A stretch of DNA of 64,000 bases from Alphaproteobacteria bacterium (GTDB lineage: Bacteria > Pseudomonadota > Alphaproteobacteria > MPNO01 > UBA830): contig OZ219790.1 in assembly GCA_964291215.2 (NCBI GenBank), forward strand, positions 1,728,001 through 1,792,000. The letters are read 5' to 3'. The translations under genes were made by a program, and so were the position numbers. This document shows, one piece after another, positions 15,854 to 59,699 of the stretch. The notes beneath the pieces were generated by a model. It ran no database searches. It saw nothing but the letters and a program-made list of their open reading frames with translations, and was not told the origin of the DNA. The number at the start of each line of letters is the position of its first letter. The first letter of the stretch is position 1.

Positions 15854-17009
15854 TGGCGTATTCGGTTGTCCGTTTTCCGGATTTCTTGAATTCGACGCGC
15901 CGGGTGACGCGGAAGATCTGCTAGTTGATCATCTTCGCCAGCGGGGTGAAGATGGTGCGCTGGCGGCCATGCGCGGGCTTTTCGTTGTAGCGCTGGCGGT
16001 CTTCCAGTTGATGCTCTCTCGAAGGTGCGTTGCCCTTGACCATCAGTCCGCGCGATGGGTCTCGATGATCAGCCGCGCGGGTGGTGTGGAGCGCGTCGAG
16101 GGTGAGCAGACGGCCGGCAACCGGCGCCGTCGCGGCGTGGACGGCAGCGATCTCCCCGTCGTAATAGTTGAGGATCGAAACCGGCATACCGGTCCCGTGC
16201 CAGCGAGACCGTCTCGTAATGATCCTCGCCGGTGCGGCCGCGGATGCGCTTGCCGTCGACCGCGTTGCCGACTTCCGGGCGCGGCTGCGCGCCACATCCT
16301 CGATCCATCCCGGGTCGGTGTTCTGCAGCACCCGGTGCACGGTCGATTTGGAAACCGGCTTGTCCCTGTTCTTCCATGCTGCTCCAGCTCCTTCTGCGTC
16401 GTAGTGCGCCGCCGCGCCGGTTCGCAAGCCGCGCCATCACGCACAGCACCGAGGCGATGCGGTGCCCCTGCGCACGCCGGAAAGCGCCGCTGATAAATCG
16501 AGCGCAACTCCTGCGCCGACCAGCGGCGCCCGCAACTCCCACGCCACAGGAAGCGGCGAACGATCCCGTAGCCGACGTCACGACGCAGCGGAAACACGTA
16601 AAGATCCTTCGCCTCCCCGGTCGGTATAGCGCCCGCTGGCGCGCGCATAGCTCCTGCCAACGCACTCCCAGTTCGCTGCCTTGTACATGGTGCCGCTGAA
16701 CTTCGTCGGCGAGACAAACGACTCCGCAACAAGTAACGGATGGCGCAGCCTCCCAGTCGCCGCCGCACCATCCGCGACAACGCAAACGAGGCAAGGCCCG
16801 GAAACGACCACCAAGAACAACAAACCTCGTGTTGTTCCCGGCAACCGCCTGAACTGTTCCTCGCGGCGCCAGCCAATCCAACGGGTGCGCAGCTGAGGGC
16901 GCCCGTCTGCCAGCCCGCAGCGCCAATCCACCGCCCGCGCCAAGTGAACACGTAGCGCAGACCTCGACCGGCAAACTGCTTGAAACCAAGAGTATCTACT
17001 CACCCCTAG

Positions 17010-17206
17010 TGTTATGTCCCGTAAATACGCGCATATAATCTTTCAAGCTTGTCGAAGATCGAATCTGCGGTTACGACCCATACGAAAGGGGATGTGGATT
17101 TTCGGTGGGCAACCAGAGGGGAAGTTGGCGGCCGCGGGGCATATCGAAAGGCCTCCTGTTGCGAGAGAGACCGAAAATATATCACACTTATTTACGGGAC
17201 ACTACA
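17010..17206. mobile_element. About 197-bp MITE, IS630-like ends, inserted at CTAG
   Basis: 18-bp IR tgttatgtcccgtaaata / tatttacgggacactaca flanked by ctag on both sides; no transposase. Confidence 0.75.
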
Positions 17207-17210
17207 CTAG

Positions 17211-18045
17211 GTTGTGGACTCAAATAATTGGTTTGCGATTCTGCGGAGCAAGAATCGGCTGGCAGCCAGTTGCACGGCGGAGAGGAAGTTCCGTGCGGTC
17301 TTGAAGAACCGCTCGACCAGGTTGCGCATCCTATAGATCTCGCGGTCGAGCGGCCGTGGCGATGTCCGGTTGGATTTCGACGGAACGACCGCGGTTGCTC
17401 CTGCCGTCTCGATCAGATGGCGTCGGTGTCGCAGGCCTTGTCGCCGACCACCGTCTCGCCATGCTCGAGGTCGGCGAGAAGCGCCTCCGCCTGCGCGCAG
17501 TCGGCCGCCTGGCCCGGGGTCAGGAACACGGTCTTCACCCTCTCGTTCTCGTCGATGCCAAGATGGACCTTCGTCGTTCGTCCGCCACGGCTCAGCCCGA
17601 TTTGCGAAGGCTCGTCGTCCCGGGACGCCCCAGCACCGTGCTTGTGAACGCGCACCGACGAGGAGTCGACCATGCGCAGATGAACCGGCGGGCCATCGTC
17701 GCTCCCGTCATCATCGCTCGTAAGCCTTTGAAGCTTCTCCATGATCGACGCCCAGGTGCCGTTCTTGCTCCACCGGTTGAAGCGGTTGAAGCAGGTCGTG
17801 TACGGACCATACCGCTCCGGCAGATCGCGCCACGGCGTACCGGTGCGAAGCACGAAGAATATCCCGTTCATGACCCTCCGGTCATGCACCCGCTCCGGGC
17901 CCTGGTGCTTATCGGGAAGCGCCGAGCGGAGAACCTCCCATTCCGCGTCGCGTGTCGGTCGCCGCTCATCCTTCACTCTCCTTGTGGATCGCTTTTGACA
18001 AGACATGACAGATCGTGCAAAAATGTCAACATTTGGGTACACACC
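17211..18045 (-). mobile_element. IS5 family (IS427-group-like) element, eroded
   Basis: IR gttgtggactcaaat / atttgggtacacacc; ctag flanks; DRRVMNGIFFVLRTGTPWRDLPERYGP, SRGGRTTKVH. Confidence 0.88.
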
Positions 18046-19815
18046 CTAGTTGGGTTCTGATTGGTCGTAGTTCTCGTTGATGATGTCTGCGGCTTTTCCG
18101 TCGAGGGCGATCTGGGTGGCGACGTGATGATTGTAGCCGAGTGCGGCCATGGAGGTGAGGTAGCTTGAGCCCCGGCACCATGCTTTTGCGTGGAGCGGAA
18201 GCATCCGGACACCTTGACCTTTGCCATCCTGATCTTCTGTTCTCCGGCATTGTTGGTGAAGCTGACGTCGGGGTTGTCTATGAAGCGCAGGTTTTCGTGT
18301 TTCACGAGACGTTCGTGCAGGTTGTGCGCGTTTGCTATGCGTCCACGTTTTCCTTTCGTCGGCGGCGGGATGTCGGGCAGTTCCTTGGCGCCCTGATGGT
18401 GCGGTAGCGCTTGCGCCCGGCGTCGTTCAGGGTCTTGGATGCGCTCTTGTTGATCTTGTGGCAGACCTCGCGGAGCAGGCTCTTCATCAGTCGCGCCCAG
18501 CGGTAGCCTCGACGACAAAGGTCAGTTCGCGCAGCAGGTGGCTGCCGCACAGCTGGTGGCTACACTGGCCCATGTACGAGGCCCAGGACGCCCTTGTAAC
18601 ACGGGATGATGCCGATCTCTTGCCTCCCGGCCGCGCTTGCGGTGCGGGAACTTGCACGTCAGGGTCCCACGACATGAAGCCACTTACTGTTGATCCGAAA
18701 TCCGGTCTCGTCGACATGCAGGGCCGGGCGTTGCAGGAGGTGCGCCACGGCGGCCTCCTCCCATGACGCATCGTGAAAGCATAGCCGAGGCCTCGGAGAG
18801 CTTGATGCCGGAGATCGCTTGCACGAACGCGACGGCACGGCGCAGGGACAGCATCTGGGCGACCAGCAGGTTGATGACGAGGGCCTGAATGCCGATGCCG
18901 TACTGCACGGGATGTTGTCGGGGAACCGGCCCTTGGTCCGGGCCTTGCACTTCGGGCATTCCTTGATCTCGGCGCGGCGCTCGACGACCTCGAACACGAT
19001 GTCATAGAGGACGCGGCGCTCCCGATCGACGGGGCCGTTGATGTCGGCGCCGCAGGCGTCGCAGGCCGCGACCGTCTCCTCGACGATGGTCTTGCGCAGG
19101 TTGTCGCCCATCTGCCGGTTCGGCTTCGGGCCCTTGCTCCCGGCACGCTCTTGTCCGTCTGTGACGGCGGCAGACCGGAGTTCCGGCTCGTGCGTGGTCT
19201 TCTCCAGAAGGACGACGATGAGGATGTCGAGCAGGATGACGAGGACGCGGATGACGGCTTTTTCCGCCACCTTGCCGGCAGCGCCGCGATCTTGGCCGCT
19301 TCGAACTCCTCGCGCGCCGCGTTGACCGTCGCCATCACCCGGCCTTGCGCTTCATCAGCGCGCCGCCTCCGAGATGCGTTTCCACATACAGATCATGCGG
19401 GTGCTGGAGCCCCGGAAGTAGCTGGCCCAGCCCGCTCGTCGCCTTCGATCCAAAGTAGCCCACTGGCGGTCCCCGTCGTTCTCGATGACCACCACTAAGC
19501 GAATCGGCATGCAGTGTCAAATCTCCACGAAAACCCGTTCGTTGCTCTACCCCGACATCAAGCCGGAACTAGGGGGTGAGCAGTTACAACCAAGATACGG
19601 TCAACAACACGGTTCCAGCGACATCAGGCCGCGCAAGGCGCACAACCACATCCCGGAGCTCAAAACCCTCCGGAGTCGTCTCAAAAAAATCCGCTGCCCC
19701 CACGACAACGGATACTACGCCGCTTCACAAAAAGCCAGCGAAAATGCGAATCATCCTGAACAAGCAAAACCGACCCTTCCAACAAACCTAGCGTGGGATC
19801 GCCGTGCTTGGAGGT

Positions 19816-19960
19816 CAGGACTTTCTCACGCTGCATTCGATCTTGTCGACTGCTGATGGAGGGAGGTTGTACAACCTGCCGGGTTTTCTAGCTTCGGGGC
19901 CATCCGCGGTCGTCGCCGGCGGCGTTGCCGGTGCGCGGGCGGGTTGTTTTCGGGATGTAG
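19816..19960. mobile_element. One end of the CAGGAC-terminated element also seen at 30028-30148
   Basis: caggactttctcacgctgcattcgatcttgtcgactgctgatggagggag matches the reverse complement of about 30100-30148. Confidence 0.7.
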
Positions 19961-19967
19961 GCGGGTT

Positions 19968-20936
19968 GTGGGCGACAGGCCGCTATCACCGCAAGGTTCA
20001 CCAGTGTCTTCATGACCGGAGCTTCGAGGTTATTCTCGTCAACCCGTTGCGGGCTTCGCCGAGGCGATGGGCCAACCGCGTCGACGCCAAGATCGGCTGG
20101 GCGATCTTGAGCCTGTGGCTCCGCCTTCCTCAAGAGCTTGGAGGATCTCCTGGTGCCGCGCTTGTCGACGCCAAGCAGGTGGCAGATGAGGTGGATGGCG
20201 AGACCGTCACAAGGGCCTCAGCGGCCGATCTCGATGACCACATTGCCGGCGCGGCGATCAAAGCGGTGATCGCCGGTGATCCCGAGCAGAGGTACGCCAT
20301 CCTGACCTCGATCCGGTGACCGCCGCGGCCCTGCTGGATGCCCGAACTCGGCAGCGTCGGCAGCCTTGATCGGGGTGGCGCCGATGGCCAACGACCACGG
20401 TGCTCGGCACATCCGTGGCGGGCGCCGAAGGCCACGTGATCTCCTGTTCATGGCCGCAACCGGCACGCTTCAACGCGGACCTGATGCGCCTCAAGACTGC
20501 CGGCAAGGCCCACAAGGTCGCGATTGTCGCCGTGATGCGCAAGCTCTGGCGAACACCTTGCTGCGACAGCAGCGTTGCCTGAAGCACCGGTGAGTGAGCG
20601 AAGGAGACACGGCCCTCACCCCTGCCGAGAGCGCGATCGGGACTGTATCGACAGTCTCCCTCTACGACACGACTTGGGGAGAATGTCTGCAGATCATCGT
20701 CGAGGCCGACATCGAGGAGATCGAACCGTCTTGGGACACCTGGAACCCGGACGGTCACGTGCCCGGGGACGGCAAGGTAGCCGCGTTCACGTGACCAATG
20801 GACGGCAACCCGCCGCCGGGACCACAAGCTTCATGTCGCCTCGCTCGCAGAGCAAATCCCACACCACTTGTGGACAACCACAGAAAACATCACCACAGAC
20901 ACCCGCAAAAAACCTTGCCAAGAAACATGGATGCTC
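19968..20936 (+). mobile_element. IS110-family unit copy 2, 5'-truncated
   Basis: Homologous to about 43575-44773; same right junction into ISAs1 (gatgctc|ggt) as copy 1. Confidence 0.8.
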
Positions 20937-21402
20937 GGTCGAGCGCGCCTCGCCGCAACAGTTGCTCGCATGGAATCGCGGACACCGGGGGGGGGGGAGC
21001 GAGAGCCATCATCATGTCCGCGACGCCACCTTCCGTGAAGACGACCCCATGCTCCGAACGCGCCCGCAAACAACGCGATCACCCTCGCAATCGCCGTCAT
21101 CATCCACAACAAGCTCCCCAAACTCTTCAACAGCTTCCCACCATGCCGACAAGCGCAGACAGATCCTGCACGCAATCACAAGACCAAGCTGACCGCGCCT
21201 CTCTCCCCGACAGAAACCGCAAGCTTTCGAGCCCGGCAACCAAACCCGGCAGGCCTCTCGCCCGCCCCGGATACGCAGACCAATCGCGCCCCGCGCCGCA
21301 ACAGCGCGTCAGCAAATCTCAAAATCGCAGCCTCGAACGCGTCGACCCGCGCCGCGATCAGGACTCCGATCACATCACATCAACAAGCATGAGATCACCT
21401 TG
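20937..21402 (+). mobile_element. 3' part and right IR of the ISAs1-family element
   Basis: QQLLAWNRGH...HHHVRDATFRED; ends agcatgagatcaccttg. Confidence 0.82.
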
Positions 21403-21806
21403 GCAGGCTCCGAAGAACCCTTGTTCGCCGCCTTCAACGGTAGTATGGCCGGATCTGACTTCTCGTTCATCATCGGTTTGCGGATTAGTTCCTTTCCTCT
21501 GCGGCCCCTCCACGACAGAGGGGCAATTGAAAGACCTCCCAAGTCCCTGCTTCGGCGCGTGCCATGGTTCTCGGACCCCGCGGAGCCCCTGCTCGCCTCA
21601 CCAAAACGGCTCGCAGGGTGTTGCCTTCGGCCAAACGGACGACCTCGGCACTCCGGTTTCATAGCATCTCGTGGCTCAATAGCCCGGCCCACGCCTGCCG
21701 CTCCCCAACGCTTCGCCTGACGCCTCACGACGCATGGTTCACGGAGAAAGTGGTGGTTAGCCTCTCTTCCTGCCGGGACTTGCACCCGACAACATTCCAC
21801 CAGTTA

Positions 21807-24226
21807 GGACTATCGCCAAAATAAATTGATCGTTATGTCCGTGGCGTGAGGGTGTAGTTCCACTCGCCGTGGAACGAGTCTCTGCGGATGGCGAGGCCGT
21901 CCATCTCATCGTTGCTGACCTTGACCCCGAGCGGATAGCTGTTCTCGTTGAGGTCCGAGCGTATGGTGAGGCCGGCGTCGGTGGTGGTCGCGGCGACCAG
22001 CTTGACGATCACCTGGTAGCTGACGAGGGGCCGGCCGCGCCAGTTCCGGGTGATGTGGCAGAACATCCGGTGCTCGATCTTGTTCCACTTTCCGGGCGGG
22101 AAGTGGGCCACCGACACCTTCAACCCGAGTTCGTCGGCGAGGTGCTGCAGTTCCAGCTTCCACAGCCGGTTGCCGCTGCTGTTGGAGCCGTCGGCGGCTT
22201 GGCATCGGGATAGAGCAGTTGGCCCATCTGCCGCCACCAGCGGCCTCGACCGCGAACGCCGCCGTGTCGTGCCCAACGCTGACCCAGCCGGCGTTGGCGG
22301 TGAGATCGTAGACCCCGTAGGGGATCGCCTTGCCGAGCTCTGGATCGGGGAAGTCATACACGTTGACGACTTCAGGGTCGCCCTTGAGGCCCGGCCGCCA
22401 TTGCGGTACTGGATTTCCTTCTTCCTGATGTCACTACGGGCTGGCTCAGTCTCCGGAACGCGCGCACCCGGCGCGTCGGAACTGCGCATCCCGGTCCGGA
22501 TGCTGGCGGCCTTCCAGCGTCTTGCGATTGGCCTGGAGGCTGTACCCCAGATCGTGGAGCAGCCGGTTCACCGTGCGCTCGCTGACGCGGTGGCCCTCGA
22601 CCGCAAGACGGTCCGCCAGCCGTGCGGCACTGTGACACCGCAGCGAACTCTCCGGATCGCCGCGCGTCATCGGTTCAAGCTCGCGCTCCAGCGCCGCCAC
22701 CAAACCCGGATCCACATCCGTCACCCGCTTGCGCCCGCCGCCGGGGCGACGCAAACGTCCTGAAGGAATCTCATTCGAAGACTCCGAATCAAGCTCCTTC
22801 AGCCCGGCGCGAACGGTGCCGCGTGACATCCCCGTCGCCTCAGCCACTCGCGCAATGCCTCCGCGCCCGATGGCACGGGCCTCCGTCGCCGCCCACAGGC
22901 GCCGCGCACGTTCGTTCAGAACCGGACGCAACATCACAAATTTGGATCGCAGCGTATCGACTATCACTTCCATGACATCATTAATAGCAGATCCACATCA
23001 AAAAACAATCCCCCCGTTCCATAGTGAAGTGCAACACATGATGGGCTGTGGCCATGTGTTTTTAGACGCATGATGTTGCGGAGCGGTAGCGGCGAGAGTC
23101 CCTGTACAAGATGGAGGGAGCTTGTTCATGTCCAAAGGCTACCGTCACCTACGAAGAGCGATGCCAGATTGAGGCGTTACAGAAAAGCGGTCTTTCACAA
23201 GGTGCGATTGCTCGGCAGCTGGGCCGATCAACAATTTTCCGGGAGATCAAGCGCAACACCGGGGGACGGGGTTGCCGTCACAAGCAGGCGCAAAGGATGG
23301 CAGAAGCGCGCCGCAGGGCCGCCTCGTCTGTTTCCTGGCGGTTGACGCCTTGGGTTGAAGCTCAGAAAAAGCTGCGGGAGGGCCCCTAGCAGCGGCCGTT
23401 TTCGACTGGAGGGCCGTGGGTCGGCAACGGATCTATGATCGCCGAAGATCGGAGAGCCGGGGGCGTCTTGAAGCTTCGGCGGCGCGGCAAGAAGCCGAAC
23501 TGGAAGGGCGGATGCCATTCCGGCCGGGTGGACATTTCCGAGCGCCCTGCGGAGGCAAAGGAACGGATCGGCGACTGGGAGCCATCATCGGCAAAGCTCA
23601 CAGTGGAGCTGTCGTGTCGCTCGTGCCACGAAATACGCCTTGCCGGGTGGACAGAAAGACACGGTCGGTTCGGTCATGATCCGCCTGCTCGGCTCTGGTG
23701 CGCTATTGGTCCACACAATCACGTCAGACAACGGAGTTCGCAGACCACAGGCGTGTCGCACTTGACGCAGATTTCTTCTTCGCCTTTCCATTCCTGGGAG
23801 CGCGGCTTGAATGAGCACACCAACGGCCTGGTGCGGGAGTACTTCCCGAAGGGCACGGACTTTCGCGCGACATGCAACGAAGATGTTCAGAAGGTGCGGC
23901 TCAACACTCGGAAAGTCCTGGGATCGCCGACGGAGGTAATCTTGAAGTGAAACCGCCCTGACCATCTGCGCCATGTTCCAAAGCCGCAACGTGCAGCAGG
24001 GTCCATGCCGCGCGACGGCGGAATAGTGGCTTGAAGCCGACAAAGGCGTTGCATAAGCTCGATGTTGAAGGAACTGAAGCTGTTCCCAGGCGGAATCGAG
24101 AGGGGCAGAGGGGAAAAATTTGCGCAACACCCGGCCCTCATCTCCGTTCGGGCTACGCCCTCACTGCGATGAGGGCCGGGTGTTGCACTTCAGACTGGAA
24201 GTGGGGATCTATTTTGGCGAGAATCC
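21807..24226 (-). mobile_element. ISAzo13-family element (eroded transposase 21833-22973) with nested IS30
   Basis: IR ggactatcgccaaaata / tattttggcgagaatcc; TTA duplication; LNERARRLWAATEA, HPDRDAQF, KWNKIEHRMF, FHGEWNY. Confidence 0.9.
23011..24206 (+). mobile_element. IS30-family element copy 1 (eroded)
   Basis: IR cccccgttccatagtgaagtgcaacac / gtgttgcacttcagactggaagtgggg; 3-bp TSD atc; IARQLGRSTIFREIKRN, SWERGLNEHTNGLVREYFPKG. Confidence 0.92.
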
Positions 24227-24240
24227 TTAGCCTGGCGCAC

Positions 24241-24440
24241 TCGCTTTCGCTACGGCCCTCCGGTTTGTTCACCGCCCTAGCTGACCGAGAACCGGCTGGG
24301 CACTGCGTCCCAACCACAGCGGCTTCTACTTCCCAGCTCGCTGGCCCAGGGTCGCCCCTGAGCCAGTGGGATATACTACGGTGCCAAACTGACAATTGCG
24401 GGACTTACACCCGCAGGTACAGCAGCTGGACTCGCTGCAC
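24241..24440 (-). mobile_element. Group II intron 2, first about 200 nt (host of intron 1)
   Basis: Minus strand starts GTGCAGCGAG...CCTGCGGGTGTAAGTCCCGCA, an intron domain I-like start. Confidence 0.62.
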
Positions 24441-24843
24441 GGAACCGAGAAACTCTGGCAGGGATACCAACTCCTCCTCTACTTCGTCGAAAATTACCAA
24501 AAATGCGGAAACTCGATATGCAGAAATCAACGAACTCGATAGTGTCAGATTGAAAGCGCAGGAGCCCGGATCACATGTCGGCAGAAAAACCGGAACCGGA
24601 CCGAAACGACAACAGGGAAGAAACACGATCCTGAAAACAGGACTTTCCCACGCTGTGACTGATGTTTTGGATGACCGCTGAACGGGGCACAAATTTCCGC
24701 ATTCTTGCTAGTATTTTGACATTATTGTATTGATGCATATAGTGACTTCAGTTTCGTCCGGGCATCCTTCCTCGTGAAACGCCGGTCGACGGTGACATCG
24801 GCCGCATTACGCCGTTCCACCCATGCTGCCGTCTCCCGCCGCA

Positions 24844-29400: not shown

Positions 29401-29482
29401 GGCCTGCAATGTCAAATCTCCACGAAACCCCGTTCGTTACTCTACCCCGACATCAAGCCGGAACCAGGGGGTGAGCAGTTAC
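26482..29482 (-). mobile_element. IS66-family element copy 2 with nested ISAs1
   Basis: Same ends as copy 1; 8-bp TSD ctcttttt at 26474-26481 and 29483-29490. Confidence 0.92.
27044..28491 (+). mobile_element. ISAs1-DUF4338 element copy 3 (eroded)
   Basis: Both IRs; 10-bp TSD gtcgtggacc at 27034-27043 and 28492-28501. Confidence 0.92.
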
Positions 29483-45546: not shown

Positions 45547-45838
45547 TCCAGTCTCCATGGAGGGTTGCACCGGCGCGGCGCAGCCGGCTCTCGCCGCCTG
45601 CCGCCACGCCCGCCCCCGACCGGCTGCTCTCCGGCTCCGGGAGGCGCAGCCCGACCGTCACCGCCGCCGGAAACGGCGGACGGTGCGGTACGGCGGTATC
45701 GGAAACGGTGGAAGAAGGCGCGCGGGCGGCGGCGGATGAGCGGTGGCCGGCGCTGGGGAAAGTGTCCCGGGTCGTGGACCGGAGAGTCGGCCGGCTATTG
45801 GACGGCCGTGATCGCGAGGGTCCGGAGTGCGCGGCCGT

Positions 45839-49105: not shown

Positions 49106-49119
49106 AAAGCGGGGGGCGG

Positions 49120-49604
49120 GGGTATGCCGGGGAGACCAACCGGCTCAACCGCGAGCGTCGGGCGCGAGCGACCGCGCGGAGCTGGCCGGGATCGAGAAGA
49201 AAATCGCGTCGATGCTCGACGCCATTGAGGAGGGTGGCTACGTGCGGGGTATGTCCGACCGGCTCCGCGAGCTGGAGGCCCGCCAGGACGAGATCAACGA
49301 ACGGCTGTCAGCCGCTCCGGTCGACATCCCGGACGTTCACCCCAACATTGCCGGCGTCTACCGCCGCAAGGTGGAGCGACTCGCGGAGGCGCTGGCCGAT
49401 CCCCGCGACCAGGCGGCGGAAGCCATAAGGGGGCTGATCGAGCGGATCGTGCTGACCCCCGGCGCGAAGCATGGCGAGTTGCACGCCGCGCTCCATGGCG
49501 ACCTCGGCACCATCCTCGAATGGGCCGGGAGCGGCAGGGCGAAGGGAACGACCGACATCCTGCGAGGCAGAATGTCGGTCTCGGTGGTAGCGGGGGCTCG
49601 CAAC
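49120..49604 (+). pseudogene. C-terminal fragment of a second large serine recombinase
   Basis: DVHPNIAGVYRRKVERLAEAL...AAEAIRGLIERIVLTP...MSVSVVAGARN, paralogous to the C-terminus of 49308-51227. Confidence 0.8.
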
Positions 49605-51227
49605 GTCTTTTGTTATAACTTGGAATCGGCTTCGGGTTTTGCGCCCGGAAACGATGTCGAGGATGTTCATTACCTCGCCGCGTAAGGTGGCGTTGACCTC
49701 GCCGCGCTTGTCGCCGGGCTCAAGCACCACTTCGTCGACCAGCGCGCGGAACGCCTCGGCGGCCTGATCGCGCAGTTCGGGATCGGCCAGAGCCTCGCTC
49801 AACAGCGTCACCTTGGCCTTGTAGATTTCGGCGATGTTGGGGTGGATGTCCGGAACATCCTCAGGCGCCTGTTCCATGCGCGCCAGAAGTTCGGCCTTCT
49901 GGCGTTCCAGTTCCTCCATCCGATCCTTCATGGCCGGCTGATACATGCCGTCATCGATCGCTGCCATGATGCCGGCGATGCCGCGTTCGACCTTCTCCAG
50001 CGCCTTGCGGTCAAATTCCGCCTGCGCCCGGCGTTCACGGTTCTGCTGATTGAGCGCTTCTGCGTAGGCCCGGACGGCCTCCGCCACCGCATCGGCAGAA
50101 ACGAGCTTCTCGGTGAGGCCCGTCAGAATGCGGGCCTCGATCTTCTCACGATGGATCGTGTGACCATTGTCGCAGGTCCCGCGGCGATAGCGGTTGAGGC
50201 AGCCATAGCGGTCGCGGGTGATGATGCCGTAATTGCCGCAGCAGCAGCCACATTTGAGTAGGCCCGAGAACAGAAAGGCCGGACGGCGCAGCTCGTTGAC
50301 GTGCTTGGCACGATAGGCGCGCACGCCTTTGGTGACATTCTCGAACTGCCTGGCGATTTCCTCCTGCCTCTGCCGCGCCGCCTGCCATAGGTCTTCGTCC
50401 ACGATGCGCAGGTCCGGCACCTCGGTCCTGATCCATTCGGACTCCGGATTGACCCGCGAGACGCGCTTTCCCGTCGCCGGGTTCTTGATGTAGCGCAGCC
50501 GGTTCCAGACCAGCACACCGGCATAGAGCTCGTTGTTGACGATGCCGGTGCCCCGGCAGACATGGCCGCGAATGGTGGTGTCGCCCCAAGCCTTGCCATT
50601 GGGACCGGGAATACCGTCGCGGTTGAGATCGGCGGCGATAGCCTTGGGGCTCTTGCCGGCGGCGAATTCGCGAAAGATGCGGCGGACGATCTCGGCCTCG
50701 GCCTCGTTGATCTTCCGCTCGCCGCGCACCTGCTCGCCATCGCCGTTGAGACGTTTCACGACGTCATAGCCATAGCAGAGCCCGCCGCCCGCCTTTCCCT
50801 TCTCGACGCGGCCGCGCAGGCCACGGTGGGTCTTGGCGGCGAGGTCTTTCAGGAACAGGGCGTTCATCGTGCCCTTGAGACCGACATGCAGCTCGGAGAT
50901 TTCGCCCTCAGCAAGCGTCATGAGCGTCACGCCGGCAAACTTGAAATGCTTGTAGAGAATGGCGACATCGGCTTGGTCGCGGCTGATGCGGTCCAACGCC
51001 TCCGCCAGCACGACCTCGAACTTGCCCGCCTGCGCGTCCTGCAGGAGCGCCTGGATGCCCGGCCGCAGAGTGACGCTGGCGCCCGAAATAGCGGCGTCCT
51101 TGAAAGCGCCCACGACCTTCCACTTCTCCCGCGCCGCCTGGTCCCGGCAGATGCGGAACTGGTCCTCGATGGAGGAGACGCTCTGGTTGTCCGAGGAGTA
51201 GCGGGCGTATAACGCAACGCGGGTCAT
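49308..51227 (-). CDS. Large serine recombinase (integrase); the last about 95 codons read through into the opposite fragment
   Basis: ALYARYSSDNQ, SIEDQ, D.AISGA, LDRISRD, recombinase domain, SGLLKCGCC zinc ribbon, coiled coil. Confidence 0.93.
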   Translation of the reverse strand: MTRVALYARYSSDNQSVSSIEDQFRICRDQAAREKWKVVGAFKDAAISGASVTLRPGIQALLQDAQAGKFEVVLAEALDRISRDQADVAILYKHFKFAGVTLMTLAEGEISELHVGLKGTMNALFLKDLAAKTHRGLRGRVEKGKAGGGLCYGYDVVKRLNGDGEQVRGERKINEAEAEIVRRIFREFAAGKSPKAIAADLNRDGIPGPNGKAWGDTTIRGHVCRGTGIVNNELYAGVLVWNRLRYIKNPATGKRVSRVNPESEWIRTEVPDLRIVDEDLWQAARQRQEEIARQFENVTKGVRAYRAKHVNELRRPAFLFSGLLKCGCCCGNYGIITRDRYGCLNRYRRGTCDNGHTIHREKIEARILTGLTEKLVSADAVAEAVRAYAEALNQQNRERRAQAEFDRKALEKVERGIAGIMAAIDDGMYQPAMKDRMEELERQKAELLARMEQAPEDVPDIHPNIAEIYKAKVTLLSEALADPELRDQAAEAFRALVDEVVLEPGDKRGEVNATLRGEVMNILDIVSGRKTRSRFQVITKDVASPRYHRDRHSASQDVGRSLRPAAPGPFEDGAEVAMERGVQLAMLRAGGQHDPLDQPPYGFRRLVAGIGQRLRESLHLAAVDAGNVGVNVRDVDRSG

Positions 51228-51257
51228 GAGATTTTCCTTCCTTTCAAAGCCGGAAGG

Positions 51258-51488
51258 TCACCCCTCCGGCTTCCGCCCCTCTTCCTCTCGCTCCAGATTG
51301 TCGTTGGCCGCCTGCCTCCGCCGCTTCCTCTCCCAGGCCGCGTAGTGCTCCCGCGCGATCTGGCGCCCGATGGCCCGCGCGATGGTGTCCAAGTGCCGCT
51401 CCGCTTCTTGCACCGCCCGTTGCTCGGGGCCGTTATCGTTCGCCGGAGGCGGGATGACCGCGGCCGGCTAGTCCTCCGTTTCCTTCAT
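51258..51488 (-). pseudogene. Small recombinase-associated ORF with an in-frame TAG at codon 7
   Basis: MKETED*PAAVIPPPANDN...LDTIARAIGRQIAREHY...AANDN immediately upstream of the integrase. Confidence 0.55.
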
Positions 51489-51601
51489 GAGCCGAACCTT
51501 TACAGTATTAGTACACACTGGAAAAGGATCACCCAAGGCGCGGATTACTCTTATGACCCCTATGTACGCTCATCATGCGTTCATGCCGACTTGCATGTCG
51601 C

Positions 51602-52396
51602 TCAAAGGATGCCTACCGACATCTGGGAGTCCGCAGCATCGACTCTCGATCCCGCGGGGATCGGAAACTGGTCCCAGGTTCTTCCGTCAAGCGTCCGGCC
51701 AGTCTTCTTCTTGTTCACGCCGCCCCATTGCTTGAAGTGGAAGGCAACACCGGCTTGGATGCACTGGTCACGAATCGACCGCACCCAGTCCGGGTTTATT
51801 GGGCGTGCGCCCGGCCCGCTCTCACCGCCAGCAATCACCCAGTCGACGCGCTCTAGATCAAGATCATCCATTGATCCAAGTAGGGGCTCGAGACTCAGAA
51901 ATCTAACGGCCGCGCCTGTCCTGCGCAGGTGATCAATGCGAAACTGATAGTCGGCATTCTCGACGCTGACGCCCATCCAAACGTTTTGCGGCCAGGTAAG
52001 AGCATTGGATAACTTCTCCAGCCTCTCAGCTCGCTTCGTCAGAATCTGGTAAGTGTGTTGAGGAGTCTCCTGCATTGTTGCGAACACTCGTTGGATGAAC
52101 TCCAGCGGCACATCTTCATGAAACAAATCCGACATCGAATTGACGAAGATCATTCTCCCCGTTTTCCAAGTGGCCGGGAGATTCAGGCTGTCCTCATCGA
52201 CACGAACCACACCGTTCCACTTGGGCTTACCGCCGGACATGCGGGTCGTACCCGCGTACTTCGGCTGCCCCATTGCCTCCAAACGCCGCGCCAGCCTCAT
52301 GGCGTAGCAGTTGGTGCATCCCGGTGAGATGACCGTACAGCCGACAACCGGATTCCAGGTCGACTCCGTCCATTCGATTGACGAGTTAGTGGCCAA
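51602..52396 (-). CDS. DUF5131 / phage Gp37Gp68 family protein
   Basis: SSIEWTESTWNPVVGCTVISPGCTNCYA (Cx6Cx2C), FVNSMSDLFH, LSLEPLLG, WVIAGGESG, FKQWGG. Confidence 0.93.
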   Translation of the reverse strand: MATNSSIEWTESTWNPVVGCTVISPGCTNCYAMRLARRLEAMGQPKYAGTTRMSGGKPKWNGVVRVDEDSLNLPATWKTGRMIFVNSMSDLFHEDVPLEFIQRVFATMQETPQHTYQILTKRAERLEKLSNALTWPQNVWMGVSVENADYQFRIDHLRRTGAAVRFLSLEPLLGSMDDLDLERVDWVIAGGESGPGARPINPDWVRSIRDQCIQAGVAFHFKQWGGVNKKKTGRTLDGRTWDQFPIPAGSRVDAADSQMSVGIL

Positions 52397-53513
52397 TATG
52401 TCCTCCCCCGGGGAATTTGATCAGCACATGATCGGCGAAGGTTCCGGCGCGGCGCTTAGCCTTTGTCGAGCGCACGTTGATAACCCCTTCACTTTCAAGC
52501 TGATTCAGTATTTCGCGATAGTTCTTGTCAATATAAGGCGTATCAACGCTGTGTGTTTCATAGATCTGAGTGAAATTCACCTCCCGCCCTGCAAAGGTAG
52601 CGAGGAGACTATCCTTGAGTTTACTGAGGGGCTGGGCCAACGAGAACAGCAACGGCATCGACGCATCTGCTGGCGAATATGTGAGAGACGGAACACCTTC
52701 ATCATGGGTGGAGCTTTCTCCAGCCATGATACTTTTCATTATGGAATATCCACGGAAGTGCTTCGAAACGAAAATCAGCTTATGCGATGTCCGAGTTCCT
52801 GCTGCATTCTTGAAAGTGAACGGAAGGACGTACGTACCGCCAAGCCGCTTTATTTCGTTCGCTAGCTCCTCAAGGATCGCCGCCTCGCGCAGCTCAGGAC
52901 TCAGCCTTGGCAGCCGCTCGCGTAGCGCTTCGGCCCGCTCCTTGCCGAAGAGGTCGTCCATATGCTGGGCGACGAACTGATTGCCGATACCCGCATTGAT
53001 GCGATTGTAGTTGAAAAAGAAAACACAGTCACAGCCCCAGTCCTTGATCACCCCCTTGATGATGTTCAAAGAAAGCCCCTTGTACCCGAAGGGATCGATG
53101 AACGAGAAAGAGGGGATGAGTTTCGTCTCGTTGAAATATCGTGCGGCTTCATCGTCAACCTCGCCGCAGGTGACGATCGGCTTGTATTTCCGTCTATCGA
53201 TACCCGACAGCTTGTTTATCTCTTCTTGGAGGGTCGCGGTATTCTCGTTCCTTGCATCGTTAAAGTAGGAGACAAGCATCTGCGCCATGCGAGAGTCGTC
53301 GAGCGCAGTCTGAAGGACGAGAAGAGGTGTAGAAGCGGCGCCATCCTTGTAACGACCCGGCCCCGCATAAAGGTTGATATAGGCGATTTTGCCGCCATGC
53401 TTGGCGGCGGTCGGCATTATCACTCGCGCCCAAGCGAAGAAATATTTCGTGACAATTCGCGCCTTTACCTCGGACTGGTCCGAGCGTTCCTCAAAGAACT
53501 TCTTTGCCTTCAT
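52386..53513 (-). CDS. tcmP: Three-Cys-motif partner protein TcmP (methyltransferase-like)
   Basis: K..IV.KYF.AW, YINLYAGPG, FSFIDPFG motifs; overlaps the DUF5131 gene start; start taken at MKAKKFF. Confidence 0.82.
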   Translation of the reverse strand: MKAKKFFEERSDQSEVKARIVTKYFFAWARVIMPTAAKHGGKIAYINLYAGPGRYKDGAASTPLLVLQTALDDSRMAQMLVSYFNDARNENTATLQEEINKLSGIDRRKYKPIVTCGEVDDEAARYFNETKLIPSFSFIDPFGYKGLSLNIIKGVIKDWGCDCVFFFNYNRINAGIGNQFVAQHMDDLFGKERAEALRERLPRLSPELREAAILEELANEIKRLGGTYVLPFTFKNAAGTRTSHKLIFVSKHFRGYSIMKSIMAGESSTHDEGVPSLTYSPADASMPLLFSLAQPLSKLKDSLLATFAGREVNFTQIYETHSVDTPYIDKNYREILNQLESEGVINVRSTKAKRRAGTFADHVLIKFPGGGHIGH

Positions 53514-53671
53514 CTGCGACCAACCTCCCTCTGCTGTCCTGTATGCGGTCAAGATAGAATGGAACAAAAAGCGAACAATCTCAACATCTGAACGCGGAGA
53601 ACGCGCAGGAGTGCAGAATCACAGGCCGCGTGAGGCATCCTCCATGTGATCTTGCGAACCAGTATGACGCC

Positions 53672-54592
53672 TCACCTCCACGGACCGCCCGCGTTCCATG
53701 TCCCATCGAAGGGCTTACCAGCCACAAGAGCATGGACGGGCGGTAGAACGAACGCGGCCACCGTGGCCTGCAACTCGGCAAAGGGACCAGGGGCCATGGC
53801 GATCGCGGTCCGGCGCAGGAACCCCTGCCACTGCGCCTGTTTCGCGGCGTCATCGGCAAAGGCCGGCGTCAGGGCGATAGGCGTATCCGTGGGGATGTCC
53901 GTGCGGCGGCGATCGAAGGTCACGGCGATAGCTTGCGCGAGGATCGGTCCGCTGAAGGAAAGCGTCTCCGAGATCGCCCAGAGGTCGAAGAAATCCTTCA
54001 TACGGCTGTTGAGCATGCCGAGTGCGACCAGCGCCTGGAACTTCTCGGCCACGACCGTCTCGGGCGGATAGGCACGTAGCCGGGGCGCGGGCATGTCGAG
54101 CAGCGAGGGATAGTCGATTTCCTGCACGGCCGGAGTCACAGCATCGCCAAATCCGATGTCGATCTGAATGGGCAGGCGCGCGCCGGCGATCTCGGCGGTC
54201 ATGGTGATCCGGACGCCGCTATATTCGTCTTCAGCCCGAGCCGGCTCGGCCCGCAGGGTATCCGGCTTGAAGACCACGCCATCGTCCTCGACGTCGATCC
54301 CGCAAATTTCGCGGAAGACCGCAGCGATCCGCTCCGGCGCCGCGTCGCCGTACCCTAGAAGATCGAGATCGCCGGTGGCCCGATAAGGCGTGGGCGTCCA
54401 GAGGCTGAACAGCATGGCGCCCTTCAGCACGAATTGATCTTTGTGGGGCGACAGACTCAGCCGGTAGAGAAGCCGCTCGATGGCGAAGCGGGTAAGCGCA
54501 AGCTGGACGTTCTCCTTGCGCTCGCTTGCGCGCCGGGTGAGTCGAGCCCGGACCGAGGCGCCGACATTCTTCAGGGGCGGTTTCGGGGTCAT
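53672..54592 (-). CDS. abiEii: AbiEii type IV toxin (nucleotidyltransferase)
   Basis: ASVRARL, ERLLYRLS, FVLKGA, R.T.DLD, AEKF, NSRMKDFFD. Confidence 0.92.
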   Translation of the reverse strand: MTPKPPLKNVGASVRARLTRRASERKENVQLALTRFAIERLLYRLSLSPHKDQFVLKGAMLFSLWTPTPYRATGDLDLLGYGDAAPERIAAVFREICGIDVEDDGVVFKPDTLRAEPARAEDEYSGVRITMTAEIAGARLPIQIDIGFGDAVTPAVQEIDYPSLLDMPAPRLRAYPPETVVAEKFQALVALGMLNSRMKDFFDLWAISETLSFSGPILAQAIAVTFDRRRTDIPTDTPIALTPAFADDAAKQAQWQGFLRRTAIAMAPGPFAELQATVAAFVLPPVHALVAGKPFDGTWNAGGPWR

Positions 54593-55203
54593 ACCGTGGC
54601 CTCGATATAGGGCCGCATGACGTTCTGCACGCGGTCGATGGCGGCGAACCGCCAGAGGTCGTCGACCGTGGCGCGGCGGCTTCGGAGACAGTCTCTCAGC
54701 GCCTCGATGGCGACATCGAGACCGACTTGGCTGCGGTATTTGAAACAATCAGCGACCGTCTTGGCCGGATTGGTGATAGGCACTTCCACCTGCTCGATTG
54801 TGTGCCGCTCCACCCCGGCGGTCAGGGCGTCGCCGGTGGCGCGGATGATGCGCAGGGACACTGGAGGATTCTTGGGCGCCCACTTTTTGTGACCGATCAG
54901 CATCCAGACCTGATGCGGCAGTTGGGTGGTGAGTTCGTGGAATCTGAGCGCGGAGAGCAGGCAGATAACACCGTGGGGCACGGCCCGAGCGGCTTCGGCA
55001 AGGCTGTGGGACTCGGACCATTCCGCATCGGCAAGCTGATAGAGGCCGCGCCCCATACGCACCAGAAGCCCTTCGTCCTGCAGCCTCCGCAGGTAGGTGC
55101 GCGGAATGCCCGCCGCATCGAAATCGCGCGCGCGCACGATACCGCGCTCCCTGGCGACGGTGATCGCACGATCCTTCAGCGTTCCTTGAGCCGTTCCTGC
55201 CAT
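54589..55203 (-). CDS. abiEi: AbiEi type IV antitoxin / transcriptional regulator
   Basis: L.RMGRGLY, VICLLSAL.FH.LTTQ.P, AKTVADCFKYR; stop overlaps the abiEii ATG. Confidence 0.92.
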   Translation of the reverse strand: MAGTAQGTLKDRAITVARERGIVRARDFDAAGIPRTYLRRLQDEGLLVRMGRGLYQLADAEWSESHSLAEAARAVPHGVICLLSALRFHELTTQLPHQVWMLIGHKKWAPKNPPVSLRIIRATGDALTAGVERHTIEQVEVPITNPAKTVADCFKYRSQVGLDVAIEALRDCLRSRRATVDDLWRFAAIDRVQNVMRPYIEATV

Positions 55204-55312
55204 GTTCCATATGCTCGGCAATAGTACACAAATGCCGAGACTTTGTATCGCGTCCCCTGACCCCCTGCAACCGGAACTAAACAACTTGACCACGAGTATG
55301 GCGCTCATGCTG

Positions 55313-55630
55313 CTACTGTTCCCGCCGCCTGTTCCAGACGAGCTGCGCCCGATCACCCTCCTCGGAGGGGAACAGGGCCGCGGTGAAGGGCTCGGGAAGG
55401 CTCGGATCGTCGAGACGGACGCGGAGATAGTATTTCGGGTTGTCGCCATTCGTCCGGGCATCCCAGGCGTCACCGATGCGGGCGTTGCCGACGAGGACGC
55501 GGAATGCCGGGGCGTTGTCATGAGTACGATCATCGTTGGGGACGAGCCGGACCTTGGCGTCGATGGTGAGCGTGCGGATGGAGCCGACCCAGCCACCGTC
55601 ATTGGACAAAGAGAAGGCGCCGATTTGCAT
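55313..55630 (-). CDS. DUF736 family protein
   Basis: IGAF...G.IRTLT...NAP.FRV...IG.AW...LDDPS. Confidence 0.85.
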   Translation of the reverse strand: MQIGAFSLSNDGGWVGSIRTLTIDAKVRLVPNDDRTHDNAPAFRVLVGNARIGDAWDARTNGDNPKYYLRVRLDDPSLPEPFTAALFPSEEGDRAQLVWNRRREQ

Positions 55631-55633
55631 GAG

Positions 55634-55957
55634 TTACTCCTGGAATTGCGATGGGGATGAGACAGCGGGCGACGCCGCTTCGGTATCGCCCGCGCGTGAT
55701 GAGCGGGCGCGGCGGGCCGGTTTGTCGATGTTCGTCTCCGGCAACCCCTCCTTGCGCGCCTTGGCGAAGGCGCGGTCGCTGTCGAGGAAGGCCTCCAGCA
55801 TGAAGGGAATGAGCTCGGCGATGGATTCGGTCTCGCCATAGGTGGCGCGGTAGAGGGTCGCGTAATCCCGGAGTGCCTGGTTGAGGTCAGCACCCACCGT
55901 GATGGTGATCTTCGCCGGCGTGCGGTCGGGCAGTTTTCCGAGTTTCAGATTGGCCAT
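55634..55957 (-). CDS. DUF2274 family protein
   Basis: LKLGKLPDRTP.KITI...LIPFML..FL..DRAF; usual position after trbI. Confidence 0.85.
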   Translation of the reverse strand: MANLKLGKLPDRTPAKITITVGADLNQALRDYATLYRATYGETESIAELIPFMLEAFLDSDRAFAKARKEGLPETNIDKPARRARSSRAGDTEAASPAVSSPSQFQE

Positions 55958-55968
55958 GATCGATCCTT

Positions 55969-57210
55969 TCAGCCTTGGTAAGGGCGCAATACGAGATCCC
56001 TGTGGACGATGACCCTGAGCGGCCAGCCGGGACGGACGGTGATGGTCGGCTGGATATCGAGGTTCTTCTCGGTGATGCGCTGGCCGGCCCGATTGACGTT
56101 CTGCTGGGTGGATTCACGGATCGCCCGGACCAGGCCTGCCCCGGACCCCGATCCGGGGTCGCTCTCGTCGCTGCCCAGAGTCAGTTCCGTGCCGACGCCA
56201 AGCAAGGTGGCGAGCGCGATGCCCTTGATGAGCCGCCAGGTGTGGTAGTCGACCTCGTCCTCGAGCCCGGCATGGCCGGCGGTGTCGGTGGCGGGCAGAT
56301 TGTCGATCTCGATGGAGGAGCCGTCGGGCAGAACGATGCGCTGCCAGACAAGCAGCGCACGGGACTGGCCGAAGGCAACGACACTGTCATAGGTGCCAAT
56401 GAGGCGCGTGCCCTGCGGGATGAGCAGCGTGCGGCCGCTCACCGTGTCATAGACGTTCTCGGTGACCTGGGCGGCGACGAGACCCGGCAGGTCGGAATTG
56501 ATCCCGATGATCAGGCTCGCGGCAATCACACTGCCGGCCATCACCTGATAAGGCGAGATCGGCGTTTGCAGCATATGGGGATTGTAGATGCCGCCGGTGT
56601 CACGCTGGCTCACGAAGTCCAGTTTGCGCTGCCGGTTGTTCTGGTCACGCTTGGGGTCGAGCGTCAGGCGGTTGGCGTCGGGTGAGACGGTTGCTGCTGC
56701 CGTTTGCGGAGGCTAACTCGTTAATGCCGGAGCGCTCTGCTGGGGCCGGTTCTCGATACGGAAGAAAACGCCGGCCTCCTTCGCCTGGATAGCCTGCTGG
56801 GCGAGGCGCTGCTCCTCGGCGGACAATTCCGGCGCTCCCGGCGCAATCCCAAGCTGGCGTTGGCGTTCGAGGATCGGTCGGCCGAGATCACCGGGCAGCG
56901 GCGGCCCCAATTCAGGTGTCTGGGGACGGACCTGCGAATAATCACCGGGCAGCGCGGCAAGGCCGTCCGGGGTCGGCTTGCGTTCGGTGTTATAGAGCTC
57001 CTCGGTCTGGTCCTGGATACGCAGGGCCGGGCCTTGCAGCGCCATCATGGTCACGCCGAGGATGGCGCCGGAGCCGAGCACGGCCACGCCGATGACAAGG
57101 CCGCGCCTGAAGCGCACGACGCGACGGGGCGCGGCGCGCAGGTCCAGCTTGCCCGGATCGCGCTTGGACGAACCGGCGGGTTGCGGCGGGGGTGCGGCGG
57201 TATCCGTCAT
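55969..57210 (-). pseudogene. trbI: TrbI/VirB10 conjugal transfer protein, frameshifted near 56715
   Basis: LGPPLPGDLG in one frame stopping at 56713; AGSVIAASL.GINSDLPG...QPTITVRPG in another. Confidence 0.85.
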
Positions 57211-58191
57211 GGCCCCTCTCCCTACCGGTCCGCGCGCGGAACCAGCGCGGTGCGCCGCGGCGTCCCGTCGGTCCGGGAAATCCGAACCACCTGCGGCGGC
57301 GAAGAGACGATCTACGATGTAGTAGTTGCCGCGCACGCGGTAGTTAACGAGCTGGTTGCCGCCGTCGGCGCCCACCACGAAGAGCGGCGGCGCCTCGCCC
57401 TGGTCTATACGGCGGGGGAACTCGATATAGACCTTGTGGCCGTCGTCGAAGGCGCGCAGCGGCTTCCAGGGCGGGTTGTCGCCGGTGATGGCGTAACGGA
57501 AGCGGATGTTCTCCAACGCGACATTCGAGGCGACCGGCAGCGCCGCTTGTGCCGCGTTCTGTCGGCGCAGGGCGACAAGCTGATCGGAAGGATAGGTCCA
57601 GGAAATCGCCGCCATGGCGGTATTCTCGGTGCTTTCGAGCTGCAGGTGATAGGCGCGCCGATCGGTGGTGATGACGAGATTGGTCTTGAGCCCCGGCGCG
57701 AAGGGCTTGACCAGCACGTGGGTGCGCTCGCTGTCGCCCGTGCCGCTCACCGTATCGCCGATGACCCAGCGCACGGTGTCGCCGGCGGACACCGAGGTCA
57801 GCTTTTCGCCGGGCTGCAGGGCGATGTCGCTCACCCGCTCGGGCGCTGCATAGAGCTGGTGGAGCGCCCTTTCCGTATAGGGATAGACCTGGATGGCGTT
57901 GACATAGCCGTACTTCGTCGGCTCCTGCGTCGCCGCCTTATTGGCGTCCTCGACCCGCTCGGTCGGCGGGCGTTTGTCCTCGGTCCCCTCGCCGGGTTCC
58001 GGCTGAAGCTGGCCCGGCAATGGCAGAACCTTCGGCACCTCGACGATCTTCACCGGCCTGGCCGGTTCCTTGTCGATGATGGCCGGCTTGAAATTGTCGG
58101 CGTCGTAGCTGATCGCAGGCGGCAAAGGCTTTGTGGCGCAGGCGGACAAGGCCAGCGCCGACACGGTGATGACAAACATATTCTTCTTCAT
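57210..58191 (-). pseudogene. trbG: TrbG/VirB9 conjugal transfer protein, C-terminus frameshifted into trbI
   Basis: LSAC lipobox, AGDTVRW, TNLVITTDRR.Y, AFDDG.KVYI, YYIVDRLFAAA then loss of the expected continuation. Confidence 0.85.
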
Positions 58192-58193
58192 TG

Positions 58194-59699
58194 GTATCTA
58201 CTCACCCCTTGTTGGGTTCTGATTGGCCATAGTGCTCGTTGATGATGTCTGCGGCTTTTCCGTCGAGGGCGATCTGGGTGGCAACGAGTGGGTTGTAGCC
58301 GAGTGCGGCCATGGAGGTGAGGTAGCTTGAGCCCCGGCACCATGCTTTTGCGTGGAGCGGAAGCATCCGGACACCTTGACCTTTGCCATCCTGATCTTCT
58401 GTTCTCCGGCATTGTTGGTGAAGCTGACGTCGGGGTCGTCTGTGAAGCGCAGGTTTTCGTGTTTCACGAGACGTTCGTGCAGGTTGTGCGCGTCGGACTT
58501 GCGTCCACGTTTTCCTTTCGTCGGGATGTCGGGCAGTTCCCTGGCGCCCTGATGGTGCGGTAGCGCTTGCGCCCGGCGTCGTTCAGGGTCTTGGATGCGC
58601 TCTTGTTGACCTTGTGGCAGGGAGCAGGCTCTTCATAAGTCGCGCGGTAGCCTCGACGACAAAGGTCAGTTCGCGCAGCAGGTGGCTACCGCACAGCTGG
58701 TGGCTACACTGGCCCATGTACGAGGCCCAGGACGCCCTTGTAGCACGGGCCGATCTCTTGCCCGCGCTTGCGGTGCGGGAACTTGCACGTCAGGGTCCCA
58801 CGACATGAAGCCACTTGCTGTTGATCCGGTCTCGTCGACATCGGGCGTTGCAGGAGGTGCGCCACGGCGGCCTCCTCCCATGACACGAGCGCATCGTGAA
58901 AGCATAGCCGAGGCCTCGGAGAGCTTGATGCCGGAGATCGCCTGCACGAGCGCGACGGCGCAGGGACAGCATCTGGGCAACCAGCAGGTTGATGACGAGG
59001 GCCTGGATGCCGATGCCGTACTGCACGGGATGTTGTCGGGAAACCGGCCCCGGGCCTTGCACTTCGGGCATTCCTCGGCGCGGCGCTCGACGACCTCGAA
59101 CACGATGTCGTGCGGCGCTCCCGATCGACGGGGCCGTCAGCGCCGCAGGCGTCGCAGGCCGCGACCGTCTCCTCGACGATGGTCTTGCGCAGGTTGTCGC
59201 CCATCTGCCGGTTCGGCTTCGGGCCCTTGCTCCCGGCACGCTCTTGTCCGTCTGTGACGGCAGCAGACCGGAGTTCCGGCTCGTGCGTGGTCTTCTCCAG
59301 AAGGACGACGATGATGATGTCGAGCAGGATGACGAGGACGCGGATCACGACCTCTTCCGCCACCTTGCCGGCCGCACGCAGCGCCACGATCCGGGTCTTG
59401 GCCGCTTCGAACTCCTCGCGCAGCGACGCCGCGTTGACCGTCGCCATCACCCGGCCTTGCGCTTCATAAGCGCACCGCCTCCGAGATGCGTTTTCACATA
59501 CAGATCATGCGGAGGCTGGAGCCCCGGAAGCAGCTGGCACAGCCCGCTCGTCGCCTTCGATCCAAAGTAGCCCACTGGCGATCCCCGTCGTTCTCGATGA
59601 CCACCACTAAGCGAATCGGCATGCAATGTCAAATCTCCACGAAAACCCGTTCGTTACTCTACCCCGACATCAAGCCGGAACCAGGGGGTGAGCAGTTAC
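58194..59699 (-). mobile_element. IS66-family element copy 4 (no TSD; upstream trb genes missing)
   Basis: Same ends as the other copies; flanks cttcattg and gaggcggc do not match. Confidence 0.92.

Follow-up and report, generated by a model that had tools for sequence, protein, structure and literature searches.

Shared deletions of 5-7 bp across the disabled copies of an IS66-family element in an alphaproteobacterial genome

Introduction

The end of bacterial insertion sequence (IS) blooms is usually put down to extinction of the host lineage or to large deletions, and is still an open question. In fungi, repeat-induced point mutation (RIP) employs a dedicated enzyme that makes new C-to-T changes in repeats until the family is dead. 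Other described systems bear comparison too. In Drosophila and primates, deletions in paralogues outnumber insertions by about 3.4 to 1 through deletion-biased non-allelic gene conversion (Assis and Kondrashov 2012, PMC3280953). Oligonucleotide recombination (PMC2920528) and the process called SPDIR (for short-patch double illegitimate recombination; bioRxiv 10.1101/2023.11.22.568220) incorporate a donor strand together with its markers, give products of varied size and run at tiny rates in the wild type; indels of 1-4 bp are repair substrates, and loops of at least 5 are not easily recognised (PMC2920528). Deletions in the pseudogenes of Ca. Burkholderia follow a power law in size, with a bias to multiples of three and 43% microhomology (Danneels et al. 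2018, PMC6054270), and the IS fossils of Wolbachia decay by substitutions and deletions, the accessible text mentioning no shared 5-7-bp deletions (PMC3205602). Here we analysed a stretch of 64,000 nucleotides (hereafter the window; positions 1728001-1792000 of contig C1, OZ219790.1, assembly GCA_964291215.2) from the genome of an alphaproteobacterium, which carries four copies of an IS66-family element. The 160-copy family to which they belong appears to have been disabled in place by very small deletions that spread in one direction.

A family of 160 copies without an intact member

The genome under study (G000) comprises two contigs (C1 and C2; 6.15 Mb, 64% GC, 99% complete), about 33% of which is repeated DNA, and was compared with its sister G001, the congeners G002 and G004, and controls outside the genus, G036 among them. 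It holds 160 near-full copies of the IS66 element, none of them intact, with 15-47 deletions per copy against the first family reference and means of 36.7 deletions and 21.2 substitutions against the final one. When the segments kept anywhere in the family were joined, they aligned in a single frame with residues 1-482 of P0004, an intact transposase of the IS66 family, at 52% identity with one stop and 3 gap positions, and hence the segments are ancestral. That they are instead copy-specific insertions is ruled out by this frame, by the homology and by the intact copies in G002.

Members of the IS66 family make 8-bp target-site duplications and have inverted repeats starting with GTAA. Exact 8-bp duplications were found at 99 of 144 genomic copies, the element ends GTAACTGCTCACCCC and GTATCTACTCACCCC form an imperfect inverted pair with the GTAA start, and intact relatives match PF03050 (DDE_Tnp_IS66) at 6e-42; by these sequence features the element is classed as an IS66-family member of the type with a single open reading frame (ORF). 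Its first 240 bp and last 150 bp are nearly without 5-7-bp deletions. Exchange limited to the transcript was rejected as the reason, since single-nucleotide polymorphisms (SNPs) at the ends are shuffled too; the ends were likely spared because copies still had to be moved in trans.

Several related sequences were observed alongside the family. The 5' module of 240 bp (window ~40270-40507, - strand), which is spared from deletions, occurs about 220 times, sometimes fused to other bodies, and matches relatives in G004 at 58% over 72 codons. A young IS66 family (C2:3168680-3170974, C1:922417-923232) has 11-12 near-identical intact copies with ends starting GTAACT and 8-bp duplications; it offers an early time point in the process and is a possible helper in trans. 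A family of 47 copies (C2:3041345-3042851), putatively group-II-intron-like from its end motifs, is nested at one fixed site in many IS66 copies, locally in tandem runs.

Size and sequence signature of the deletions

In the IS66 family, 80 of 159 deletion alleles measure 5-7 bp (13, 43 and 24 for the three sizes) and 33 measure 1-4 bp. Most repeat families of the genome bear the same signature: over 29 pooled families the sizes from 1 to 9 bp occurred 133, 35, 36, 20, 180, 421, 270, 69 and 33 times, in a pool where two families duplicate others, large families are represented by subsamples, copies differing from the seed by over 7% are excluded and the ancestral state is an assumption for all families but IS66. 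Copies of large families have about 14-21 deletions per kb, and the indel load per SNP climbs with copy number (rho 0.53, 31 families). Microhomology is 2 bp or less in 66 of the 80 IS66 alleles of 5-7 bp; among the common 5-7-bp alleles of the pool a junction repeat of 0-1 bp was seen in 376 of 654 (80% expected), microhomology being enriched over chance but not required.

Common alleles have a weak symmetric preference at their ends, with a first base other than C, a pyrimidine second and a C third (4.34 vs 3.51, p 3e-25). It is weak in singletons (p 0.04) and was not seen in single-copy deletions (p 0.21, n 58), in which microhomology is also more pronounced. The sites can be predicted from local sequence only weakly, with an area under the curve (AUC) of 0.74 on held-out data and 0.65 in G002. 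No strict motif of restriction or methylation type was found at deletions (top enrichment ~1.5-fold), nor a context motif at common C-to-T SNPs. Folding energy and pairing at deletions, examined for hairpins, were no different (n 133), and distinct alleles within a family were not clustered beyond chance (19 vs 18.5 pairs). The end preference did not match the target-duplication logos of resident transposases, whose ends are resolved in few families only.

Allele frequencies and exchange between copies

New 5-7-bp deletions are rare in the family, at 9 singletons per ~390 singleton SNPs, and the singleton rate is close to that of single-copy non-coding DNA (0.013 per lineage substitution). The folded spectrum is nevertheless dominated by common alleles for deletions (33 common, 12 single) vs single ones for SNPs (44 common, 390 single; odds ratio 24, p 5e-20). 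Synonymous changes are over-represented among shared SNPs (48:32) relative to singletons, which look neutral (101:207, p 1.6e-5), so that the SNP backgrounds date from the time of an active transposase and the frameshifting deletions came later.

The copies have exchanged sequence. Common SNPs are near linkage equilibrium, and pairs of rare SNPs share carriers in 12, 10, 24, 26 and 35 cases at distances up to 10, 30, 100, 300 and above 300 bp (0.37, 0.48, 1.9, 4.8 and 17.8 expected), a decay that indicates exchange tracts of tens to hundreds of bases. For 6 of 92 unmatched left ends the partner of the target duplication was found elsewhere (0.34 expected; one of the six is ambiguous). SNP diversity at 4-10 bp from a deletion is about 0.6 in carriers relative to non-carriers, and neighbouring copies less than 30 kb apart are slightly more alike in deletions (0.23 vs 0.25, p 0.03) but not in SNPs. 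In a second family, SNP haplotypes are kept over kilobases and only the deletions vary; near-identical haplotypes differ in deletions which are also present in other SNP clusters. Lower linkage of SNPs with deletions than of SNPs with each other was not used as support, as it stemmed mostly from few tight SNP clusters.

Identical breakpoints in diverged families

Related families of G000 that are 7-13% apart have lost the same segments in 14 of 16, 4 of 5 and 16 of 42 cases (2.6, 0.7 and 3.4 at random), and the breakpoints are identical in 30 of 34 coincident deletions. Beside these shared deletions the diagnostic SNPs are of the family's own type, at 137:1 within 1-5 bp and 137:3 within 6-10 bp, and the ratio is the same around unshared deletions. 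G002 repeats the picture: between two of its subfamilies 15% apart (five copies from each), 25 of 49 deletions coincide (4.0 expected, maximum 12 in 5,000 shuffles), and SNPs within 10 bp of the shared ones are own-type at 145:6. One deletion found in both subfamilies has the same extra junction base in 8 of 8 carriers. As the flanking SNPs stay own-type, ordinary conversion does not move the deletions.

The initial annotation of the window had described deletions shared among the four copies in a pattern impossible on a tree, and had put this down either to microhomology hotspots or to patchwork gene conversion that disables a whole family. Much of the description stands. Polarised against an intact IS66 relative, the changes are deletions of ancestral segments; no copy of the 160 is intact; and the four-gamete test fails in 85-94% of common deletion pairs more than 20 bp apart. 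Neither mechanism survives in detail. Microhomology explains one 74-bp loss (8 bp) but not the 5-7-bp alleles, and the copies do recombine, as rare-SNP sharing and swapped target duplications attest, but the test for SNP co-transfer is negative (137:1). Slippage at microhomology and ordinary conversion both fail to fit. The 5-7-bp size range, the genome-wide reach and the second species had been missed.

Reach beyond the family and the species

The size peak extends to single-copy DNA, where 93 of 343 gaps in G000 are of 5-7 bp vs 4 of 172 in G001 (502 kb aligned from 802 kb fetched, in pieces of at least 300 bp and at least 82%); this comparison is without an outgroup, and the direction is inferred from the asymmetry. 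The density in single-copy non-coding DNA is 0.65 per kb, and repeats are about 30-fold denser in deletions, a ratio confounded by selection on single-copy DNA. Within coding sequence, 43 in-frame 6-bp gaps were seen in G000 vs 1 in G001, which implies that proteins of G000 are losing two residues at a time. Indels of 2-8 bp also segregate between conspecific strains in single-copy DNA (C2:1186000-1200000; L083:5469, 6584, 8489). For the conspecific public runs X2 and X3, divergence in single-copy DNA reaches about 0.5%.

In G002, another IS66 element is present in 8 identical intact copies; a further 16 are diverged (from 30 retrieved of 34 matches, after merging of overlapping loci). Comparison with the intact copy gave, at 5-7 bp, 101 alleles with a deletion and 4 with an insertion, and conflict was seen in 478 of 1303 pairs of alleles. 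The signature was not seen in the controls outside the genus, where such gaps numbered 2 for 824 substitutions in G036 and 0 for 1,940, 82, 44 and 5 in four others; in the congener G004 they numbered 0 for 28. Controls were picked as best matches, which favours young intact copies.

The four copies in the window

The four private segments that the initial annotation had pointed out are all found, one per copy. They are private within the window; among the 160 genomic copies none is.

Copy 1 (16992-19587, - strand) is a transposase pseudogene delimited by its ends, the alignment and the matching 8-bp duplication TCTTGGTT. A nested IS5-family element, with a transposase ORF at 17413-18042 (- strand; NF033580 1.2e-48; PF13340), breaks it at CTAG adjoining its right end. 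Its 7-bp ancestral segment AGAGGAC (19006-19012, + strand), which has no microhomology, is kept in 46 of 160 genomic copies and lost in 113. Copy 2 (26482-29482, - strand; matching duplication AAAAAGAG) holds about 1.46 kb of other nested repeats at 27032-28493. Its TCGTCC (29040-29045, + strand) is the leftover of a 13-bp ancestral segment lost in two steps: 122 genomic copies are without all 13 bp and 29 without 7 bp.

Copy 3 (38991-40507, - strand; matching duplication ACAGAATT) gives a weak NF033517 match (6.7e-07). Between two CCCGGCCT repeats (40184-40191 and 40258-40265) it keeps a 74-bp segment (40184-40265, + strand) immediately upstream of the transposase start; of the 160 genomic copies, 109 are without this segment and 16 retain all of it, and its loss is a true microhomology deletion over 8 bp. 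Copy 4 (58194-59699, - strand) retains ancestral segments of 7 bp and 6 bp (59367-59430, + strand), kept in 56 and 13 of 160 copies. Exact 8-bp duplications flank three of the four copies; the two flanks of copy 4 are unmatched, and one of them has its partner at C2:1319802, on the second contig, which is what a crossover between copies would produce.

Other repeats surround these copies. One further family occupies 13969-15472, 19950-21402 and 43143-44773, and another 23009-24210 and 34487-35715; small gaps between copies are numerous in both. From 13.5 to 30 kb, elements are nested within elements, and 21566-21782 (- strand) matches RF02005, the group II intron D1-D4 model, at 127.8 bits. 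Genes for a large serine recombinase, TcmP and TrbG around copy 4 (49308-58191, - strand) suggest an integrated conjugative element.

Repair, recombination and defence genes

MutS, MutL and RecA are intact in G000, as are recJ, xseA, recO, recF and addA. The last of these matches addA_alphas, in line with an alphaproteobacterial host. Ku and ATP-dependent ligase were each found in 0 of 5 genomes, ComEC and ComM in none of the five genomes of the genus, and NucS, Piwi, RecT, ComM and TnpB gave nothing above cut-off in G000. DprA is missing from G000; its loss as the cause was rejected, since G002 has DprA and shows the same process. The dprA copy of G004 adjoins a metallophosphoesterase-like ORF, and the flanks of the G001 copy are absent in G000. 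Two CRISPR arrays with 36-bp repeats and 95 and 16 spacers lie beside Cas1 genes (C1:574247-581195, C2:2068487-2069550). CRISPR self-targeting was considered and rejected, the 111 spacers having 3 short (14-18 nt) matches to repeat families.

Proposed mechanism and rival explanations

We propose, with a probability of about one half, that rare deletions to which mismatch repair is blind spread from copy to copy as deletions only, a shortened copy guiding the cut in longer ones. Deletions of 5-7 bp, whose size peak is directly seen, would arise at a low rate anywhere in the genome, and the poor recognition of loops of at least 5 nt by MutS would set the sharp lower edge. Copies also pair and frequently exchange stretches of tens to hundreds of bases, as is evident from the rare SNPs. 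A long copy paired with a short one would loop out its extra 5-7 nt, and the loop would be cut out with the short strand as splint; alternatively, mismatch repair may restore the SNPs of the recipient and ignore the loop. Either way the deletion alone would be passed on. The outcome, which is observed, is a one-way change in which deletions reach 60-99% of copies and no intact transposase is left. The information likely comes from a template, since local sequence is too weak a predictor to fix one product in about a hundred.

A number of points weigh against this proposal. Pairing is supported by the data, and the loop removal and its enzyme are what we infer; no responsible enzyme was found among the families searched, with no full proteome comparison made. 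The SNP ratios of 137:1, 137:3 and 145:6 count carrier-by-SNP cells, not independent events. Only 10 of the 25 coincident deletions in G002 have the same start and length (gaps not normalised), and its alignments show some clearly different alleles at one site. Families with just 2-4 copies can reach 10-23 deletions per kb, and two single-copy stretches of 0.3 kb have 3 deletions each, or 9-10 per kb (top 2 of 98), so that decay of neutral single-copy DNA may be quicker than the average for non-coding DNA suggests. When signs are counted (47 of 79, 38 of 49) the reduced diversity of carriers is a modest effect, and SNP pairs of the IS66 gene less than 10 bp apart are also weakly linked (r2 0.17), which weakens the contrast between SNP and deletion linkage. 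Finally, the absence of SNP co-transfer is also predicted by untemplated recurrence.

Untemplated recurrence is the main rival and is possible, if rather unlikely. A host nuclease, a topoisomerase or a stray transposase would cut preferred sites with a stagger of 5-7 nt, the copies would lose the piece independently, and recombination would only shuffle the results. This agrees with the unmoved SNPs in the families of G000 and in G002, the symmetric preference at both ends of the lost piece, the breakpoints displaced by 1-3 bp at some sites in G002, the 5-7-bp peak in single-copy DNA and the heavy loads of some low-copy families. It needs, however, about 50 very hot products of ~4,300 possible with only 9 singletons, and a motif that is weak (AUC 0.74) would have to survive 9-15% divergence. 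Moreover, single-copy deletions are without the motif and have more microhomology, copies with more private SNPs do not have a heavier deletion load (rho -0.13), and Ku and ATP-dependent ligase were not found.

Templated spread could also be put in a stronger form, namely as an editing pathway of the genus that senses repeats and makes deletions only, in bacteria what RIP is in fungi. Pairing between copies would expose 5-7-nt loops, and a host nuclease would remove them and seal the strand against the shorter copy. We consider this doubtful; if true, any abundant transposon or intron would be shut down from within.

History alone, with deletions gathered in a few master lineages that were non-autonomous, or while the genome passed through a mutator period, then amplified by transposition and shuffled by neutral recombination, is improbable. 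In its favour, copies are overdispersed in deletion load (variance 24 vs 7.6), with long-range co-occurrence of deletions, the ends are spared and 99 of 144 copies have exact duplications. Masters should, however, gain neutral SNPs, and the shared SNPs are synonymous-biased instead; nor does history account for identical deletions in families 7-15% apart of which other members are without them, or for the unmoved SNPs.

An assembly artefact, in which consensus sequences are chimeras of mis-mapped copies, is very unlikely. In its favour, no pair among the 160 copies is near-identical (the closest pair differs by 8 SNPs and 3 indels), no long public contig spans a copy, and the best public run has 0.49 of the stretch's sampled words, although the missing words are uninformative as such contigs drop rare variants. 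On the other side, both states of several of the same indels are present in contigs of three public runs (one study), one of which is identical to the assembly along 14 kb of single-copy DNA and may have been the run behind it. Copies keep private SNPs (2.7 each) and exact duplications, the assembly of G000 has the young IS66 family intact, SNP haplotypes persist over kilobases in another family where only the deletions vary, and G002, an independent genome, repeats the pattern next to identical young copies. A guide-directed defence nuclease (CRISPR, Argonaute or TnpB) followed by error-prone joining would suit the fixed sites, the enrichment in repeats and the two CRISPR arrays, but is scarcely credible given 3 short matches from 111 spacers and no Piwi, TnpB, NucS or Ku found, present-day guides being largely refuted.

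Implications and comparison with known systems

A ratchet of the proposed kind would make a family more vulnerable with greater success. The 5-nt lower edge matches the recognition limit of MutS given in PMC2920528; mismatch repair is known to be blind there, and this link makes the process testable. Complete genomes can be searched for the signature of 5-7-bp deletions with little microhomology, shared breakpoints and unshared SNPs. Indels that copies of a repeat have in common are also an unsafe guide to their descent.

No account of bacterial IS copies that share 5-7-bp deletions was found in the full-text literature searched, which lacks most subscription papers. As in Wolbachia, old broken copies stand beside young intact ones (PMC3205602). 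With the pseudogenes of Ca. Burkholderia the genome has in common an excess of 6-nt deletions in decaying DNA and no Ku or LigD (PMC6054270), whereas here sizes 5 and 7 far exceed 3 and 9 and alleles are common to several copies. Oligonucleotide recombination (PMC2920528) and SPDIR (bioRxiv 10.1101/2023.11.22.568220) are alike in the 5-nt cut-off, the short patches and the annealing of single strands at forks; here, in contrast, donor SNPs are unmoved, recA and recJ are intact, and RecT and ComEC were not found.

Fungal RIP likewise leaves repeats riddled with one type of change, but the changes here are deletions at shared sites. In its working the process is like deletion-biased non-allelic gene conversion, under which paralogues share deletions and shrink together (PMC3280953); the present case concerns bacteria, its sizes are restricted to 5-7 bp, its bias is much stronger (101 to 4 in G002) and flanking SNPs are not co-transferred. 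The process is real, unusual and present in two species, and resembles deletion-biased non-allelic conversion minus the co-conversion.

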